Below, piece after piece: positions 2,901 through 22,612 of a DNA stretch of 64,000 nucleotides. Where the stretch lies: positions 1-64,000 of the forward strand of contig DATKVV010000022.1 in NCBI GenBank assembly GCA_035529895.1, read 5' to 3'. Both the position numbers and the translations under genes were made by a program. The notes under the pieces were generated by a model that saw nothing but the letters and a program-made list of their open reading frames with translations, ran no database searches and was not told the DNA's origin. Numbering within the stretch: position 1 is the first letter of the stretch; every line of letters starts with the position of its first letter. This stretch comes from Sedimentisphaerales bacterium (GTDB taxonomy: Bacteria; Planctomycetota; Phycisphaerae; Sedimentisphaerales; Anaerobacaceae).

Positions 2901-2988
2901 GTATCGCACATAACGCCGAGAGAAAATTGGGCGTTTTGGCTGCGATGTTTTTATGCGCTTCACCGATTCTGTTAAGATAGGCAGGATT
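2901..2988. repeat. Conserved ~88-bp non-coding box directly downstream of cassette copy 1. It contains a short hairpin aacgcc-N12-ggcgtt followed by a T-rich tract.
   Basis: Near-identical sequence (gtatcgcaca..ttaagataggcaggatt) is found at 12092..12180, downstream of cassette copy 2. Confidence 0.6.
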
Positions 2989-3030
2989 CGCCCCTTTTTT
3001 GTGTAATTACCCAACCCCCCTATCCTGTTA

Positions 3031-3100
3031 CCGCCATCTCGTGGGAATTTCCGCCAACATCCGCGCGAAACTACATGTAATCTCACACTAAAGATGGCGG
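3031..3100. repeat. 47-bp motif ccgccaTctcgtgGgaaTTtccgccaacatc...aactaca (single copy) plus its inverted partner agatggcgg. Candidate att, end or iteron site.
   Basis: Strong match to the two tandem 47-bp units at 12214..12310. An inverted repeat ccgccatct (3031-3039) / agatggcgg (3092-3100) is visible. Confidence 0.5.
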
Positions 3101-3621
3101 TGGGCGCGCACGTGCGGGAATACCTGAACATAGACGGCAAAAAGCGGGACGGCGCGCAGCAAACGCGGATTTTTGGGGGACGCGTGGTTAGATTATTAAA
3201 TTTTTTAATGATGGCATAAGTGGCAAAACAGCCAAAAATTCACAGCGAGTTGGCGGAGACTGAACTTTTAAGCGAGGCGCGTTTAAACCCGTTTAAAACA
3301 GCGCCAAATACCAGTTATAAGAAAATGCCCGGCTGGTTTTCTTGACAAAACGCGCGCACGTGGGCCTGCGCGCTTGCTCTTAGAAGTGCGCCTAACAATT
3401 AGGCTAATTAGATGAATAGTGAACAAAACTGGCGGTTTTGAGGCGATACGGCGGTTTTTGGGTGTGCGGGTGAAAACGATTGTGGAAGGATGTGTCGGTT
3501 TTCTTGACAAGGCAAAAAGTTACCCAAATTAACAAACGCTGGCGGGCGGCCAAAAAAATCTTTGAAAATGCAAAAATTTTTTTTCGGCGGGCCGCAAGCC
3601 CCCTGAGCCGTCAAAAAGACC

Positions 3622-6975: not shown

Positions 6976-8865
6976 ATGGCAAAAGACATTAACATACATC
7001 TAAAGACCACCGGGGCCGAGCAGACCAAAGAACAGCTCGACCAGACGGCGCGTTCTGCTGAGAAAATCGGCGAGTCCACACAGCAGGCGGGCAGACAGGC
7101 GGTCAAAGGCGCCGAGTGGGTCAAGAGCGCATTTAGCGCTATCGTCGGTCCTTTAGGTCTGGCGGCGCTTGCCGCCGCCGTCATTAACATCGTCCGCAAA
7201 ATACGCGCGGCGATTAACGACATGAAACAGGCTTCCTCAGAGGCCGTCAGCTCGCTGGCTGCGCTGCAGAAGGCGTCCGCCGATTACTTCGAGGCATTCG
7301 AGGCATATTCGCCCGAACAGAGGCAGGCGGCGCTTTTGCAGGCCCGGCAGTTTCAGGCAAAGACGGGACTGCCGATTGAGGCTTCACAAAAGCTGTTAGA
7401 GGCGTACAAGCGGACCTTCGGCAAATTGAATGAGGCGGCGGTCGAGCAGCTCGCGGGGTACTGGCAGTTGCACGGCCAGGAAGCGACGCTCGACCTGGTG
7501 CGATGGATGGGCGCCGAGCGAGTCACCACGCCGCAAAGACAGGGACAGATAACACGCATGGTCTCGGCGGTTGCCAGCGAGACCGGCCTCAGGGACGCGG
7601 AGATTATAAGCGCGCTGACGCGATACTCGACGGAGCTGCGCGGCCTGGGCTGGACGCCGGAAGAAACGATAATGAATATCGGCAAGGCCCTGGCGGGCAA
7701 ATCGCCGCTGGAGGCGCGCCGGGCGATGAGCTCGCTGGTGGACGGGATAAGGGCCTTCACCGAAGAAAAGGCGCTCGAGATGAAAGCGGCGGCGGAGATA
7801 GCTGCTTCAGAGAAAGAGCGGCTGGCCTGGGCGCGCCAGACAATGCTCAAGATGGAGCCGGAGGCGCGCCGCAAGTTCGCACGCCAGGCGTTCGGCGAAA
7901 CGGCTGCGCCGTATGTCACCGGGTGGCTTCTGGCTGAATATCCCGAAAAGACGCGGCGCGCGCTTGAGTACGCCCGCACACCGGATGCCGCCGAGCAGGA
8001 GCGCCAACGGGTCGAGGCCGTCAAACAAACAGCCGAAGCCGGGCGGGAAATAACCGAAGGCGGGGCCAAAAAATTGGAACTGCTCTTGGCCGAAGAAGAA
8101 AAACAGCGAGACGCGATACGGGAATACGGCAGGGTTTATCTTGAATATCTGCGCAGACGCGACCGGATACAATACGAGCTTATTAAAGCGCGTGCCGGGG
8201 ACAACGTGGAGCTGCAAAAAGAGGAGGCCGCCAAAGTATTGTTTGAGCTGAGCCGTCCGCCGCCAGCGCGTACGCGAAAAGAGCTTGCCAGCTTGGAATA
8301 CAGGCAAACCCGCGTAGAGCCGCCGGAGAAGATAGAATGGCAGGACATCCCGCTTGAAGAAAAAACAGAAGAACTGAAAAAGGCTATTAACAAGATTTAT
8401 GACCGGGAAGTGGAGAAAGAACGGCAGCGACGCGAGCAGCGGCAAAAGCAAAAAAAAGAGCCTGTCCTTGACCAGACCGCCGAAGAAGAGCCTTCACCGC
8501 CAACAGCAGCCGCCGAAACACGAGGCCCTAAGCGGATTACAAAAGAGCAGCCGCCAGCCGGAGAATTAGCGGGTCCGGAACTGCCGACCGAGACAGCGCC
8601 CACTCCGGCCAGGCGGGTAGCCGCCGAGATTCCGGAGCTGCCGACTGAGACAGCGCCCGCTCCGGCCAGGCGGGTAGCCGCCGAGATTCCGGAACCGGAG
8701 CTGCCGACTGAGACGGCGCCCGCTCTGGCCAGACAGGTAGCCGAAATTCCCGTCCTGGAGGCGCCGACGCACGTTGTGCACGTTACACATAACTATAACA
8801 ACAACCTACAATTTTTCCCTTCCGTCCATGAGGACGACAGGGGACCAAGGTTTGAGCAGGTATAA
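6976..8865 (+). CDS. Tape-measure-like or scaffold-like protein. It has a hydrophobic segment, long coiled-coil regions and a Pro/Glu-rich tandem-repeat C-terminus.
   Basis: The segment WVKSAFSAIVGPLGLAALAAAVINIV resembles tape-measure-protein N-terminal cores. Three 20-aa repeats PELPTETAP(T/A)PARRVAAEI are present. Confidence 0.4.
   Translation: MAKDINIHLKTTGAEQTKEQLDQTARSAEKIGESTQQAGRQAVKGAEWVKSAFSAIVGPLGLAALAAAVINIVRKIRAAINDMKQASSEAVSSLAALQKASADYFEAFEAYSPEQRQAALLQARQFQAKTGLPIEASQKLLEAYKRTFGKLNEAAVEQLAGYWQLHGQEATLDLVRWMGAERVTTPQRQGQITRMVSAVASETGLRDAEIISALTRYSTELRGLGWTPEETIMNIGKALAGKSPLEARRAMSSLVDGIRAFTEEKALEMKAAAEIAASEKERLAWARQTMLKMEPEARRKFARQAFGETAAPYVTGWLLAEYPEKTRRALEYARTPDAAEQERQRVEAVKQTAEAGREITEGGAKKLELLLAEEEKQRDAIREYGRVYLEYLRRRDRIQYELIKARAGDNVELQKEEAAKVLFELSRPPPARTRKELASLEYRQTRVEPPEKIEWQDIPLEEKTEELKKAINKIYDREVEKERQRREQRQKQKKEPVLDQTAEEEPSPPTAAAETRGPKRITKEQPPAGELAGPELPTETAPTPARRVAAEIPELPTETAPAPARRVAAEIPEPELPTETAPALARQVAEIPVLEAPTHVVHVTHNYNNNLQFFPSVHEDDRGPRFEQV
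8575..8755 (+). repeat. Three tandem ~60-bp in-frame repeats inside the 629-aa gene.
   Basis: ccggaactgccgaccgagacagcgcccactccggccaggcgggtagccgccgagatt recurs three times with point differences. Confidence 0.7.
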
Positions 8866-12180: not shown

Positions 12181-12213
12181 ATCAGACAATTACCTATTTT
12201 GCCCAAATCCCAT

Positions 12214-12310
12214 CCGCCAACTCGTGTGAAAATCCGCCAACATCACTGTAAACCTACACCCGTCCGCCAACTCGTGTGAAAATCCGCCAACATCACTGTG
12301 AAACTACACC
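12214..12310. repeat. Two tandem 47-bp units (period 50 bp): ccgccaactcgtgtgaaaatccgccaacatcactgt(g)aaa(c)ctacacc.
   Basis: The tandem duplication is directly visible. Each unit contains two ccgccaa half-sites and matches the single unit at 3031..3077. Confidence 0.65.
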
Positions 12311-16965: not shown

Positions 16966-17548
16966 TAAAAACTAAACTCACTTTCACCATCTTCCGCCAA
17001 AAAAAGCGAATAGTTCTCTTTCATCTTAAGTATTTATAATGATAACATTTATCGAAAATAAATTCAAGCCTTTTCTGGGACAATCGGCAACCAATGGTAA
17101 TCGACACAACCTGTCCTCCATTATACCGAGACAATACTGTAGCATCTCAGTCTCATACCACAAATCAACTCTGCGAGAGTTGTATCGTTCGCCACTGTAG
17201 TCTTTTTATCGTACTCGCAGAACTCTCACGGGTGTTTTGCTTGTTTATAAAGTTGGCTCTTCCACAGAATTTGTGGGTAAGTTCGTACATCGCCCTTCGA
17301 TTTCACTCAGGACTTCGCTCAGGGTAAACTTCTGCTTTTGGAATGACAATTCGCATTTCGCATGTTGTATTGCGTGGCTGGTATCGAGCTGGCGGGATGG
17401 GCAAGTTGTTTGGGGGTGTGGTGGGTTGCCGAGTTTGCCGGGGTTTTGTGAGACGGCGGCGGTCCCGGTGAGATAGCTGCCTTATGGGCAGGTAAGGTCA
17501 TCTCACGGGACAAATTTTGGGCTTCGGTAGGCATCTTGAGGTTCTCCG

Positions 17549-17616
17549 TGTTCAGGGTTGAGGTTTCAGGGTTCAAGGGTCCAAGGGTTCAGGTTCCAGG
17601 GTTCAGTATTCAGGTT
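17549..17616. repeat. Imperfect heptamer microsatellite, about 9 units of gttcagg-like sequence.
   Basis: ttcagggttgaggtttcagggttcaagggtccaagggttcaggttccagggttcagtattcagg. Confidence 0.6.
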
Positions 17617-21431: not shown

Positions 21432-21464
21432 AAAAAACCTGTTAATCCGCCTGAGGCGGATTAA
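21432..21464 (-). terminator. Intrinsic terminator on the minus strand: hairpin taatccgcc-tga-ggcggatta followed by a 7-nt U tract.
   Basis: Sequence aaaaaaacctgttaatccgcctgaggcggatta on the plus strand. It insulates the HEAT-repeat gene from the REP/RAYT region. Confidence 0.4.
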
Positions 21465-21515
21465 AGTGCGAACTGCAAAACTCTGGAGTGCGTGCATTCG
21501 GCTGCGCTCAGGAGT

Positions 21516-21890
21516 TCAGTGAATAAGAACGGTGGGGCAAGCCCCACCCCACGAAAGAATAAGAACGGTCGAGCAAACCCCACCCTACAAAAGTAAAAGA
21601 AGGATTCTACGGCCGAGTGAACGATTTCGAACAAATTACAAACACGAGTACAGAGGGCTTCGGTGAATAAGGACGGTGGAGCAAGCCCTACCTTACAAAA
21701 GAATAAGAACGGTCGAGCACGCCCCACCCTACAAAAGTAAAAGAAGGATTCTACGGCCGAGTGAACAATTTCGAACAAATTACAAACATGAGCACAGAGG
21801 GCTTCGGTGAATAAGGACGGTGGGGCAAGCCCCACCCTACAAAAGAATAAGGACGGTGGGGCAAGCCCCACCTTACGATTTTGGTTGTTT
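21516..21890. repeat. REP/BIME-like array. It contains GGTGGGGCAAGCCCCACC palindromic REP units interleaved with two extra copies (21594..21671 and 21738..21815) of the last 78 bp of the downstream RAYT gene.
   Basis: Direct inspection. An identical 78-bp segment gtaaaagaaggattctacggccgagtgaac.atttcgaacaaattacaaaca.gag.acagagggcttcggtgaataa occurs 3 times (the third is the true 3' end at 22433..22510). Confidence 0.75.
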
Positions 21891-21922
21891 GTCGCGTATT
21901 TTCCAGTTTTGCAGGGTAGGTC

Positions 21923-22510
21923 TTGCCCGGCCATAATAATGTCGATAATATATTTTCCATGCCGAACTATATACGCGCCAGGTTTGAGGGAGGGTATTAT
22001 TTTTTCACGGTCGTCACATACCAACGCATAAAACTATTTGGTACGGAACTTGCTCGCCGTTGTCTGAGAGAAGCGATCGAGAAAACGCAATCACGGCGAC
22101 CATTTGAGACCATTGCGTTTTGTCTTTTGTTCGACCATTTGCATTACATCTGGAAGCTTCCCGAAGATGATACGGATTATTCAAAACGCTGGTCTTCGAT
22201 AAAAGGCCAATTCAGTAAAGAATATTTGAAATTAAGCGGTCAACGCAAACGGGTTTCACCATCACGAGCGCGCAAAGGAGAGGTTTGCATTTGGCAGCGG
22301 CGATTCTGGGAACATCAAATACGTGATGAAAATGACCTTCAGCGCCACGTTGATTATGTTCATTATAACCCGGTCAAACATGGATTCGTTCAGCACGTTG
22401 AAGAGTGGCCTTGGTCAACCTATCACAAATACGTAAAAGAAGGATTCTACGGCCGAGTGAACGATTTCGAACAAATTACAAACACGAGTACAGAGGGCTT
22501 CGGTGAATAA
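21923..22510 (+). CDS. REP-associated tyrosine transposase (RAYT; IS200/IS605-like Y1 HUH transposase).
   Basis: HuH motif HLHYIW. Catalytic-Tyr region WSTYHKY. FFTVVTYQR N-terminal beta-strand. Flanked on both sides by REP hairpins. Confidence 0.75.
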   Translation: MPGHNNVDNIFSMPNYIRARFEGGYYFFTVVTYQRIKLFGTELARRCLREAIEKTQSRRPFETIAFCLLFDHLHYIWKLPEDDTDYSKRWSSIKGQFSKEYLKLSGQRKRVSPSRARKGEVCIWQRRFWEHQIRDENDLQRHVDYVHYNPVKHGFVQHVEEWPWSTYHKYVKEGFYGRVNDFEQITNTSTEGFGE

Positions 22511-22545
22511 GGACGGTGGGGCAAGCCCTACCTTACAGTAGCTGT
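22511..22545. repeat. REP hairpin (ggacggtggggcaagccctacc) immediately 3' of the RAYT gene. It probably doubles as a terminator for convergent asnS.
   Basis: Same palindrome family as the upstream array. Confidence 0.6.
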
Positions 22546-22612
22546 TGGCGTCTCGATTTGGCATTTACGATTTTGGATTCGGCAGCCTGTGAGCAGGTCG
22601 AGGGCAGGCACG

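Follow-up and report, generated by a model that had tools for sequence, protein, structure and literature searches.

A planctomycete REPtron with copies of its own right terminus arrayed outside its left end

The window (the whole 64-kb stretch of DNA analysed, from a bacterium of the Sedimentisphaerales) contains a REPtron, a gene for a Y1/HUH transposase of the RAYT (TnpA_REP) type with a GTAG-headed hairpin (REP) on either side (Table 1). The gene is intact and encodes 183 amino acids counted from the ATG, with a TTG at 21923 as an alternative start. The protein scores 185 bits against NCBIfam NF047646 (REP_Tyr_transpos; cut-off 80), which together with the GTAG-headed REPs bears out the call of a RAYT with palindromic REPs made in an earlier note on this DNA. 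It also passes Pfam Y1_Tnp (26 against a cut-off of 23) and matches E. coli TnpA_REP (PDB 4er8) with E=2.4e-34. The alignment to 4er8, which extends only through E. coli residue 147, pairs HLH (the HUH motif) with HMH and the D-Y of the catalytic tyrosine with D114-Y115. The C-terminal FGE lies beyond the aligned part and would correspond to E. coli G160/E161. The E. coli residue numbers used here (D114-Y115, 147, G160/E161) follow our own count along the E. coli sequence, and the native gene tail (T0) presumably aligns to V141-E161. FGE forms the C-terminus in most of the 120 homologues listed, and more than 100 homologues retain both the tail and the length of 183 aa. A foreign origin of the tail, gained from a repeat, was rejected because of this conservation, and is also countered by the alignment of the tail start to E. 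coli TnpA_REP.

The gene shows dN/dS values of 0.07-0.14 against its relatives. Its product has the HUH motif, single catalytic tyrosine and C-terminal G-E extension of RAYTs, and inverted cognate REPs lie near its start (R') and stop (R7). Both flanking REPs are degenerate here and perfect at L002, L004, L005, L008, L209 and L210; R' reads TTTTGCAG-GGTAGGTCTTGCCCGGCC against TTTTGTAG-GGTGGGGCTTGCCCCACC in L209, a difference of 5 substitutions. Domesticated RAYTs of groups 2 and 3 are present as a single copy per genome, inherited vertically at a fixed locus, and in group 2 a C-terminal extension ending in G-E contacts the GTAG. In E. coli TnpA_REP the C-terminal extension contacts GTAG and modulates activity (PMC8266576). 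Promoter-like hexamers (TTTGCA and CATAAT, separated by 18 nt, 21908-21937) straddle R'.

REPs are palindromes of 20-40 nt with a GT(A/G)G head, and the short palindromes at this locus have that form, GTAG plus GGTGGGGCTTGCCCCACC, with intact copies folding at -7.6 kcal/mol. Allowing up to 3 mismatches, the REP GGTGGGGCAAGCCCCACC occurs at 7 sites, all within 21531-22532, where chance would give 0.11 per 64 kb; no copy lies outside the RAYT locus within the 64-kb window. The gene is surrounded by seven 36-nt REP units in the same orientation, the REP proper (GTAG and hairpin) reading on the minus strand, and by one decayed inverted REP. The earlier description of a RAYT embedded in a REP array does not fit this layout, as six units (R1-R6) stand upstream and only R7 downstream, all in one orientation. 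Nor is the array a BIME with alternating and regularly spaced REPs, since R1-R6 share one orientation and the only inverted pair is R6/R'; a REPIN, in which two inverted REPs form one long hairpin, is likewise not what is found, the array units being direct repeats.

All seven 36-nt units open with GAATAAG(G/A)AC, the last codon of the RAYT gene, its stop codon and a 4-nt spacer, hence the array consists of copies of the right terminus of the REPtron. This shared start and the inverted REP at 21907-21932 had escaped the earlier note. The copies are either short (10 nt of the gene side, the six 36-nt units) or long (82 nt, including the last 24 codons, two units). On the REP strand they extend from 4 nt 5' of GTAG, through the hairpin and into the gene, and they are arranged head-to-tail just outside the left end of the REPtron. 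A repeating unit of gene end plus REP with a length of 144 nt, as previously proposed, was recovered by TRF (period 144, 2.5 copies, 90% matches, 21515-21876). The three copies of the 78-nt gene tail are likewise real, two of them starting one position before the 21594 and 21738 first given: 21593-21670 (0 mismatches), 21737-21814 (3 mismatches) and, as noted then, the gene end itself at 22433-22510, with 0 expected by chance. A coding role of the tail copies was rejected, the tail frame having no start codon and every unit ending in a stop, and so was a role as RNA, for which Rfam gave one sub-threshold chance match.

Table 1. Features of the REPtron and its array, with positions in the window
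Feature	Position	Strand	Description
Hairpin	21442..21464	-	intrinsic-terminator-like, TTAATCCGCCTCAGGCGGATTAA then T run; outer left array edge
X0	21497..21520	+	oldest, diverged gene-end-like stretch TTCGGCTGCGCTCAGGAGTTCAGT before R1
R1	21521..21556	-	GAAC subtype; hairpin intact, -7.6 kcal/mol; head GTGG
R2	21557..21592	-	GAAC subtype; hairpin destroyed GGTCGAGCAAACCCCACC
T1	21593..21664	+	copy of last 24 RAYT codons, 72 nt before GAATAA
R3	21665..21700	-	GGAC subtype; R7's private changes CCCTACCTTAC and one more; hairpin lost
R4	21701..21736	-	GAAC subtype; hairpin destroyed; duplicate of R2
T2	21737..21808	+	older gene-tail copy; 3 transitions relative to gene
R5	21809..21844	-	only fully canonical unit, TTTTGTAG plus perfect hairpin, -7.6 kcal/mol
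R6	21845..21884	-	perfect hairpin; head GTAA; then GATTTTGG
12-mer TTACGATTTTGG	21873..21884 and 22565..22576	+	two copies, 692 nt apart; strand as for the second
R'	21907..21932	+	REPtron's own left-end REP, inverted relative to R1-R7; decayed; just upstream of ATG
RAYT/TnpA_REP gene	21959..22510	+	HUH, catalytic Tyr and C-terminal FGE conserved
T0	22433..22504	+	native gene tail VKEGFYGRVNDFEQITNTSTEGFG; final Glu codon and stop fall in R7
R7	22505..22540	-	own right-end unit including last codon and stop; one stem mismatch; head GTAA; -3.5 kcal/mol

The hairpin at the outer left edge is likely the end point of leftward transcription from the AsnRS side. Inside it, base differences place the units in layers of different age, which follow the gene end through its successive states. 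R1 matches the right end of L210, an 88%-identical relative, at 35 of 36 positions, and the GAAC subtype as a whole (R1, R2 and R4) equals the gene end of that relative. T2-R5 retains ancestral bases, with T2 keeping the base of L002, L005 and L210 at two of its three differing sites. T1-R3 has the derived bases of the present gene together with the private changes of R7, so that T1 is a late copy or a product of gene conversion; it equals T0-R7 except for one base, while the flanking R2 and R4 are untouched. R2 and R4 have in common a hairpin-destroying lesion, TCGAG, so duplication of the 144-nt block came later than the loss of the hairpin from that REP. Homologous recombination appears to lie behind both this duplication and the identity between T1-R3 and the gene end.

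Divergence between array units is about 10%, and the hairpin is lost in 4 of the 7 direct units and in the inverted REP. No variation in array copy number was found among the assemblies compared (at least three). For these reasons the array is a mostly old, decaying structure with one recent re-copy or conversion, and the earlier view of an in-situ snapshot of array growth was not sustained. Stretches of 16 kb, 9.5 kb and 7.7 kb that include the array recur, 99.99-100% identical and without gaps, in contigs from other samples (L001, JGI 3300031669; L205, ERZ27256847; L206, ERZ27256808). This bears on an expansion or collapse during assembly, which had been named as the finding that would undo the original observation. 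All of these contigs are short-read metagenome assemblies, and T1 and T0 are identical over 78 nt, a setting in which such an artefact could arise. However, the same structure was obtained from at least three samples and assemblers, and the roughly 10% differences let the units be told apart, each repeat copy having unique neighbours. An identical array in three or more assemblies is not an artefact, and we regard this explanation as extremely improbable.

Eight relatives (73-88% amino acid identity) have a simple element with one near-perfect REP on each side, in the order GTAG-hairpin, about 27 nt, ATG ... GAATAA, 4-6 nt, hairpin-CTAC, and homology between them and the window ends precisely at 21909 and 22537. 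In relatives the 629-nt REPtron unit stands in unrelated neighbourhoods, a pattern in favour of its moving as one piece. In L210 a full REPtron lies beside a HAD-hydrolase gene; the homologous site in L190, with 88% flank identity, has only two tail-plus-REP units. Comparison of the two sites shows L190 to be the RAYT-less counterpart of the L210 site, the RAYT having been lost and the end repeats retained. At the locus itself the HEAT gene is not kept downstream of the AsnRS relatives L207 and L208 (92% and 90% identity), so that the ancestral, empty intergenic site is not recoverable.

No second copy of the 3' tail is present within any of the 84 other RAYT loci. The check proposed in the earlier note, for the same unit beside other RAYTs, thus came back negative, and tail duplication as a general trait of this RAYT clade was rejected. 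Direct REP tandems are present at several of these loci, and in L027 the left REP and the opening ~95 nt of the ORF make up a tandem 154-nt repeat. In other genomes the 22-nt REP of the window is dispersed over at least 119 stretches, with a RAYT nearby in 1 among the matches listed, and several MAGs among those matches have it on multiple separate contigs. In other Planctomycetota many of the dispersed copies form inverted pairs resembling REPINs. A TTATTC-type stop remnant was found among 147 dispersed copies only at the three of L190, at a true RAYT end (L196) and possibly at L185, further matches in L115 belonging to another repeat; such rarity indicates that dispersed REPs are generally without a gene end. 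Searches for orphan tail-plus-REP arrays gave only an ordinary RAYT 3' end when a protein search was run with the antisense ORF spanning the array, and only L190 in a pattern scan over all fetched loci. A scan for the stop-codon and REP motif in viral contigs found nothing.

The junctions between units are of two types, which read ...CTACAAAA|GAATAAG and ...CTACAAAA|GTAAAAG on the plus strand, corresponding to ...TTATTC|TTTTGTAG and ...TTTTAC|TTTTGTAG on the REP strand. Both break 4 nt 5' of GTAG at C|T, and this breakpoint coincides, within about 1 nt, with the terminus of the element as set independently by the host-flank homology of L210 and L190. Local alignment of the REP|REP joint context to the gene site of the REP|tail breakpoint gave a score of 16 against a shuffle mean of 17.7, with the best match elsewhere in the gene, and a REP|tail joint driven by homeology was rejected. 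A fixed breakpoint at the element terminus, C|T and the lack of homology at the breakpoint make the joints look transposase-made. E. coli TnpA_REP cuts single-stranded DNA at C|T dinucleotides that flank a REP and can be as much as several hundred nt from it, and carries out strand transfer (PMC3333891), and the Marinomonas enzyme also accepts C|A (PMC8266576).

We infer on these grounds that the RAYT was the catalyst of the joints. The reading that we favour, tentatively and as something short of probable, is that the joints arose by RAYT-catalysed strand transfer and that the array was then reshaped by homologous recombination. The RAYT would bind a REP on single-stranded DNA and cut at C|N on both the 5' and the 3' side of the hairpin, in one case at a 3' site inside its own coding sequence. 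It would then link the 3'-OH to the 5'-phosphotyrosine end, along the lines of the excision/integration or rolling-circle-like BIME amplification that Ton-Hoang et al. 2012 put forward. Homologous recombination would afterwards have doubled the 144-nt block (REP-tail-REP), with one REP in it already decayed, and later one tail plus REP would have been overwritten from the gene end. The two alternatives of the earlier note, REP-mediated recombination or RAYT acting on its own 3' end, are both still live, and the mixture of joints that look transposase-made with a block and a T1-R3 copy that look recombination-like suggests that both contributed.

Observations that sit less easily with RAYT-made joints concern the donor sites, the position of the array and the host flank. 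The E. coli and Stenotrophomonas enzymes require C|T, whereas the donor sites in the RAYT gene are C|A for the short unit (TTATTC|A) and C|G for the long one (TTTTAC|G). A local rolling-circle process predicts downstream copies that adjoin the gene end, so an upstream array calls for an extra step, in which an excised unit would integrate beside an upstream REP or the REPtron would be duplicated in tandem. Terminus-specific cleavage leaves the 8-12 nt of host flank in R6 (TTACGATTTTGG) unexplained. The lesion shared by R2 and R4 also implies that this duplication, at any rate, did not depend on recognition of that unit as a REP. The constant copy number of the array among the assemblies compared weighs the same way.

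The main rival explanation dispenses with transposase chemistry. Hairpin slippage or template switching, unequal sister-chromatid exchange or ectopic conversion between direct REPs would have duplicated a REP and its neighbour, included 72 nt of coding sequence by accident, and then expanded and homogenised the units. We consider this a possible but doubtful account. In its favour, the 144-nt block was doubled after hairpin loss, and T1-R3, equal to T0-R7 bar one base between an unchanged R2 and R4, has the pattern of a short conversion tract. Micro-duplications bearing no enzyme signature are also found at the RAYT loci L014 (half a REP), L027 and L190 (CTTCGG repeats), and both joint types here have a one-nt G microhomology. 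However, the REP|REP context has no significant homology to the start site of the long unit, so the founding REP|tail joint was illegitimate and not homologous. Both joint classes fall at the element terminus, a 1-in-36 coincidence for random re-joining, and the three temporal layers all derive from the gene end, not from neighbouring units. C|T marks the joints here and recurs in several other genomes: a C|T placement on the REP strand is possible for direct tandem REP duplications of the unrelated genomes L090, L120 and L048, and for that of L101 in one of five placements. Those of L033 (C|A), L049 (T|C) and L008 (T|T) fall elsewhere and L027 also misfits, the tally covers about ten junctions placed by hand, and T is in any case enriched 5' of GTAG, points that count against RAYT-made joints.

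The second copy of TTACGATTTTGG hints at one larger duplication that took in host flank. On this basis the array could be the remnant of one or more extra tandem copies of the whole REPtron, with a period of about 692 nt and a few host-flank bases, from which the left REP and gene body were deleted and tail plus REP left behind. The 12-nt sequence stands directly after R6 and again 33 nt after R7, and the scenario accounts for right-end copies lying upstream of the left end in the orientation of the gene. Loss of the RAYT with the end repeats kept has a parallel in L190 and L210, and strains of E. coli have lost tnpA_REP and kept the flanking BIMEs (PMC3333891). It would need several further events, however, namely duplication of 36 nt, a deletion whose end falls precisely on a unit boundary, and a block duplication. 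After R4 comes AAAA, where a copy boundary should show GATTTTGG. Nothing after R6 corresponds to the 32 nt that separate R7 from the second 12-mer, and a search showed no other trace of a second gene body. We judge this explanation distinctly unlikely.

The array may also be viewed from the side of the mobile unit. Over 62 nt, X0 together with R1 shares 85% identity with the orphan units of L190. Those units belong to another Phycisphaerae genome and stand there at an unrelated locus, and the sequence in common takes in a non-RAYT stretch, TTCGGCTnnGCTCAGG. It is conceivable, if unlikely, that a REP and its 3' flank (the RAYT stop region or last 24 codons) are a RAYT-mobilised unit, a form of flank transduction, which would be excised and integrated beside other REPs, at unlinked loci too. 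Direct tail repeats would then prime deletion of the RAYT and leave orphan tail-plus-REP arrays. The likeness of X0 and R1 to L190, and L190 as a RAYT-less L210 site, are hints in this direction.

Arrays of this kind have been described before, and the locus is not unusual in the way that had been supposed. In Nunvar et al. 2010 (BMC Genomics 11:44, PMC2817692, Additional file 4) tandem BIME units incorporating the RAYT 3' terminus are recorded at four loci, in P. putida W619, P. fluorescens SBW25, S. maltophilia K279a and Mannheimia succiniciproducens, and the authors concluded that the mechanism that builds BIMEs also acts on rayt genes. As in those arrays, the RAYT 3' end, stop codon and stop-to-REP spacer are repeated here in tandem with the REP, T1 and T2 each being REP-flanked with a period of 144. 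The repeated coding stretch in the published cases is apparently tens of nt to roughly 100 nt, as read off Additional file 4 (PMC2817692). In those cases the copies are downstream of the gene and contiguous with it, whereas this array is neither, being upstream of the left REP with only R7 downstream. BIME REPs alternate in orientation, whereas the REPs of this array are all direct; short (10-nt) and long (82-nt) gene-side extensions coexist here; and the earlier hosts were proteobacteria, whereas this one is a planctomycete.

The REPtron of E. coli (Ton-Hoang et al. 2012; Messing et al. 2012, PDB 4ER8; Corneloup et al. 2021) has a homologous enzyme (E=2e-34) and GTAG-headed REPs flanking the gene, and shares with this locus the C-terminal extension, ending here in ..FGE, and C|T, seen here at the joints. 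Its published models also predict tandem addition of units through two cleavages and strand transfer. The REP here is a short, perfect palindrome with an 8-bp stem and no bulge, whereas group 2 enzymes need a bulge; and the REPtron seems to occur in relatives as a discrete 629-nt unit in differing contexts, whereas E. coli REPtrons apparently do not move as units. REPs concentrated by the gene, as found here within 64 kb, are known from Marinomonas MWYL1 Ma/Mb, marine gammaproteobacteria and Thauera (Nunvar 2010), and are read in the literature as local multiplication after arrival. Unlike in those systems, other genomes have this 22-nt REP scattered widely, over at least 119 stretches. REPIN-RAYT systems (Bertels and Rainey 2011) likewise combine a RAYT with cognate REPs, although REPINs are inverted doublets, whereas the units here are direct and the only inverted pair, R6/R', includes a decayed member. 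With IS200/IS605 elements (IS608, ISDra2) the REPtron shares a Y1 HUH transposase, subterminal hairpins, a guide-like tetranucleotide 5' of the hairpin and single-strand chemistry. In those elements the end hairpins are on the same strand, whereas the RAYT clade has inverted ones and a GTAG-contacting C-terminal tail, and NCBIfam places this protein in REP_Tyr_transpos, not among IS200 transposases.

The locus is a well-resolved, added example of a phenomenon noted in 2010, and it leaves the overall picture unchanged. What is inferred about the multiplication of REPs and BIMEs still comes mostly from three enzymes studied in vitro. Copied units that drag along datable, non-repetitive sequence, here the RAYT coding tail, record breakpoints and the order of events, and the locus offers concrete candidate cleavage sites in C|TTTTGTAG, TTATTC|A and TTTTAC|G. 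To our knowledge there has been no prior study of RAYTs in Planctomycetota. In this REPtron the gene's own flanking REPs have decayed and the gene is still under purifying selection.

The 18-nt palindrome GGTGGGGCAAGCCCCACC, allowing at most 3 mismatches, occurs at seven sites in the window, every one at the RAYT locus and against a chance expectation of 0.11, which bears out the palindromic REPs that the earlier note had placed beside this gene. The repeated unit is 36 nt long and has the form GAATAAG(G/A)AC-hairpin-CTACAAAA, six units (R1-R6) lying upstream of the gene and one (R7) forming its right end; since CTAC follows the hairpin on the + strand, the canonical REP (GTAG plus hairpin) is on the minus strand. 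Bases 1-10 of the unit are the final codon of the gene (GAA), its stop codon (TAA) and a 4-nt spacer, so a fragment of the gene end is present in all the units and is not confined to the two long ones. The 78-bp gene tail does stand in three places, as had been claimed, well above chance, and the described ~144-bp repeat of gene end plus REP is recovered as a period of 144 nt (TRF; 2.5 copies, 90% matches). The whole array is 99.99-100% identical, without gaps, in contigs of three other samples (L001, L205 and L206), and is therefore not an assembly artefact.

Coordinates of REP units, gene-tail copies and other features of the window
Feature	Position	Remarks
R1-R6, 36-nt units	starts 21521, 21557, 21665, 21701, 21809, 21845	read on +
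R7, 36-nt unit	start 22505	read on +
78-nt tail, T1	21593	0 mismatches
78-nt tail, T2	21737	3 mismatches
78-nt tail, T0	22433	the gene itself
R', eighth REP	21907-21932	inverted, degenerate; 26 nt before ATG
RAYT ORF	21959-22510	+ strand
12-nt direct repeat TTACGATTTTGG	21873-21884; 22565-22576	exact; first copy abuts R6, second lies 33 nt past R7; 692 nt apart
Promoter-like hexamers	21908-21937	straddle left REP
Terminator-like hairpin, intrinsic type	21442-21464	minus strand; strong; between array and HEAT-repeat gene
Repeat resembling TTCGRCTNYGCTCAGGRCAGG	21497-21512	
Tandem repeats unrelated to array	8574-8743; 12209-12310; 17536-17614	57 nt x 2.9; 50 nt x 2.0; 22 nt x 3.6

The ORF encodes a protein of 183 aa, a length shared by most of its closest homologues, which scores 185 bits against NCBIfam REP_Tyr_transpos (cut-off 80), also clears the Pfam Y1_Tnp threshold and aligns with E. 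coli TnpA_REP (PDB 4er8; E=2.4e-34) at the HUH histidines (HLH) and the D-Y catalytic tyrosine. There are more than 4,600 homologues, the closest being named Planctomycetota, Sedimentisphaerales or Phycisphaerae, and most of the best 120 of them end in FGE, which by our own residue count presumably corresponds to G160/E161 of E. coli TnpA_REP. A dN/dS of 0.07-0.14 against six relatives places the gene under purifying selection. An NCBI Sedimentisphaerales MAG encodes a protein with 100% identity to the adjoining AsnRS. Damaged RAYT copies occur in relatives: that of L005 (1683-2234) contains an in-frame TGA despite having two perfect REPs, the ORF of L012 contains a REP (983-1004), and P0077 continues, after a frameshift, into the REP sequence. 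The left REP is straddled by promoter-like hexamers in the window and at the left ends of L002, L005, L010 and L209, with a -35-like box overlapping TT+GTAG, the hairpin as spacer and then an ATAAT-type box; this arrangement suggests that RAYT transcription may be coupled to REP structure.

Eight relatives with 73-88% aa identity (L002, L004-L008, L209 and L210) show the normal state of the element. In each, one near-perfect REP stands on either side of the gene, inverted and with GTAG distal, in the layout (TT)GTAG-hairpin, ~27 nt, ATG ... GAATAA, 4-6 nt, hairpin-CTAC(AA). Homology to the window (blastn; L002 and L004-L008) begins at 21909-21913 and ends at 22536-22537, the outer edges of both REPs, and the flanks of these loci are unrelated to one another, so RAYT plus two REPs behaves as a discrete unit of 629 nt. 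This sharp unit (21909-22537 in the window), found in unrelated gene neighbourhoods, looks IS-like, unlike E. coli REPtrons (the gene with an inverted REP on each side), which reportedly do not travel as units. Despite saturation at synonymous sites (dS ~1 or more), the relatives have flanking REPs that are identical or almost identical. In contrast to the relatives, both gene-flanking REPs of the window are degenerate: R7 has a GTAA head and one stem mismatch, and R' differs by 5 substitutions from the left REP of L209, in which the 29 nt downstream are otherwise identical. R5 is the sole fully canonical unit among the window's REPs. R1, R5 and R6 have computed fold energies of -7.6 to -7.7 kcal/mol, whereas R2, R3, R4, R7 and R' reach only -1.2 to -3.6 kcal/mol. 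Within the single REPtron of L209 the left REP belongs to the GGTGGGG...CCCCACC type and the right one to the GGCGGGG...CCCCGCC type, a compensatory change in the stem; REPs of either type are found dispersed in genomes.

The 22-mer of GTAG plus hairpin is a true dispersed repeat in other genomes. At least 119 stretches were matched in species-representative genomes, those listed including Pirellulales, Sedimentisphaerales, Phycisphaerae, Cardiobacterium, Rhodobacteraceae and others, with several MAGs matched on multiple separate contigs and a RAYT within 8 kb of only 1 of the 119 listed. Flanks outside GTAG plus hairpin are not conserved and many copies form inverted pairs; within the window's 64 kb there is no REP copy away from RAYT. 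A REPIN-like composite, TTTTGACGAGCAAGTTCGGTAATGT-REP-GCTTTYCTTGGGTCCGGCTTCCCG-inverted REP, recurs with conserved flanks on several contigs of Planctomycetota MAG VGYL01 (L105, L154, L174 and L176). A second widespread short repeat, with a consensus of about TTCGRCTNYGCTCAGGRCAGG and often with CC just before it, occurs at many Planctomycetota loci, sometimes beside REPs (the window, L004, L006, L026, L044, L103, L129, L138, L142, L170, L177 and others).

The units record an order of events. GAAC precedes the hairpin in R1, R2 and R4, and GGAC in R3, R5, R6 and R7; the right end of L210, an 88% relative, is GAATAAGAAC-hairpin-CTACGAAA, with which R1 agrees at 35 of 36 positions, so GAAC represents the earlier state of the gene end. 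Three transitions separate T2 from the gene; at two of them T2 has the base of L002, L005 and L210, and it must therefore have been copied before the gene changed; T2-R5 is also nearer to the relatives than T1-R3. T1 is identical to the gene and the adjoining R3 has the private changes of R7 (CCCTACCTTAC), making T1-R3 either a late copy or a ~105-nt conversion tract. R2 and R4 have in common a TCGAG change that destroys the hairpin, which dates the duplication of the 144-nt block (REP-tail-REP) to a time after the decay of that REP. Unit subtypes and tail states thus give at least three temporal layers drawn from the right end of the gene, plus one block duplication.

Both classes of joint share their left side on the + strand, ...CTACAAAA|GAATAAG between units and ...CTACAAAA|GTAAAAG between unit and tail. 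Read on the REP strand they are ...CCTTATTC|TTTTGTAG and ...CTTTTAC|TTTTGTAG, that is C|T, 4 nt 5' of GTAG, and the native gene sites are TTATTC|A and TTTTAC|G. Within ~1 base, this shared breakpoint falls on the element terminus, as set independently by the point at which the host flanks of L210 and L190 become homologous. The E. coli enzyme binds GTAG-REP on ssDNA, cuts at C|T on both sides across distances of hundreds of nt and transfers strands, and excision/integration and rolling-circle-like schemes have been proposed for tandem BIME growth (PMC3333891); the Marinomonas enzyme, guided by GTAG, cuts both CT and CA (PMC8266576). The joints here agree with this chemistry in their C|T and in the -1 base of either donor; in their +1 base the donors do not suit an E. 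coli-like enzyme. The most likely reading, which we hold tentatively, is that RAYT would have made the joints and homologous recombination would then have reshaped the array. A serious rival, to which we give a real but lesser chance, is that slippage or unequal exchange built it without the enzyme. With a score of 16 against a shuffle mean of 17.7, the joint context does not significantly resemble the gene site at which the long unit starts, and misalignment between homologous sequences therefore fails to account for the founding joint. Among direct tandem REP duplications at the other loci examined, a small sample with junctions placed by hand, a REP-strand C|T is possible in L090, L120, L048 and L101 (1/5 placements) and impossible in L033, L049, L008 and L027, and this comparison is suggestive only. 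At the RAYT of L027 a 154-nt tandem repeat (2944-3249; 2.0 copies, 93% match) comprises the left REP with the promoter region and the opening ~95 nt of the ORF, a mirror image at the 5' end of the window's 3'-end array.

Other processes are indicated by the host flank and by the position of the array. The 12-mer after R6 recurs beyond R7, so at least one duplication probably carried host flank; the repeat may be left over from a larger duplication or from insertion at TTAC. Purely local amplification at R7 would place copies downstream, but the array is on the upstream side of the left REP. Tandem duplication of the REPtron followed by deletion may have contributed, although we consider this improbable. 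The REPtron and array may lie between the AsnRS stop codon and the original AsnRS terminator. The structure could not be reduced to one simple series of events, and the earlier note's choice between REP-mediated unequal recombination and RAYT mobilisation of its own 3' end is supported in part, both having a place in the reading preferred here.

The occurrence of rayt 3' ends within REP arrays is already published, and this locus is a further example. Integration of the rayt 3' end and the stop-to-REP spacer into a BIME was described in four cases (P. putida W619, P. fluorescens SBW25, S. maltophilia K279a and M. succiniciproducens; Additional file 4), the authors concluding that rayt genes, too, are targets of the mechanism that forms BIMEs (Nunvar et al. 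2010; PMC2817692). In those cases the copies are downstream of the gene, whereas here the array is upstream, its REPs are all direct, and short (10 nt) and long (82 nt) gene-side extensions coexist.

A second locus of this kind is L190, from a Phycisphaerae MAG, where a putative HAD-family hydrolase gene and an unannotated ORF, at a guess ArsR-like, flank two 85-nt tandem units and part of a third (end: ...AGGGCTTCGGTGAATAAGAAC-hairpin-CTACC), with no RAYT within 8 kb of the units. L210 has a complete REPtron abutting the end of the homologous putative HAD gene (88% identity, 50 nt), so that L190 (2431-2608) and L210 (635-732) appear as the same locus in two relatives; a third REP of L190, at 295-332, is preceded by GAATAA. 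Given the full REPtron at the homologous site, L190 would most simply be a REPtron that lost RAYT and retained and duplicated tail plus REP. The window's oldest unit, R1 with the diverged gene-end-like stretch before it (X0), matches the L190 units at 85% identity over 62 nt (E=1e-13), and the match takes in a non-RAYT stretch, TTCGGCTnnGCTCAGG, itself similar to a separate widespread repeat; the likeness may reflect either mobility of tail-plus-REP units or a shared older gene end. E. coli strains have lost tnpA_REP and kept their BIMEs (PMC3333891), and the window's direct tail copies, at distances of 696 and 840 nt from that of the gene, would permit the same kind of gene deletion as is proposed for L190.
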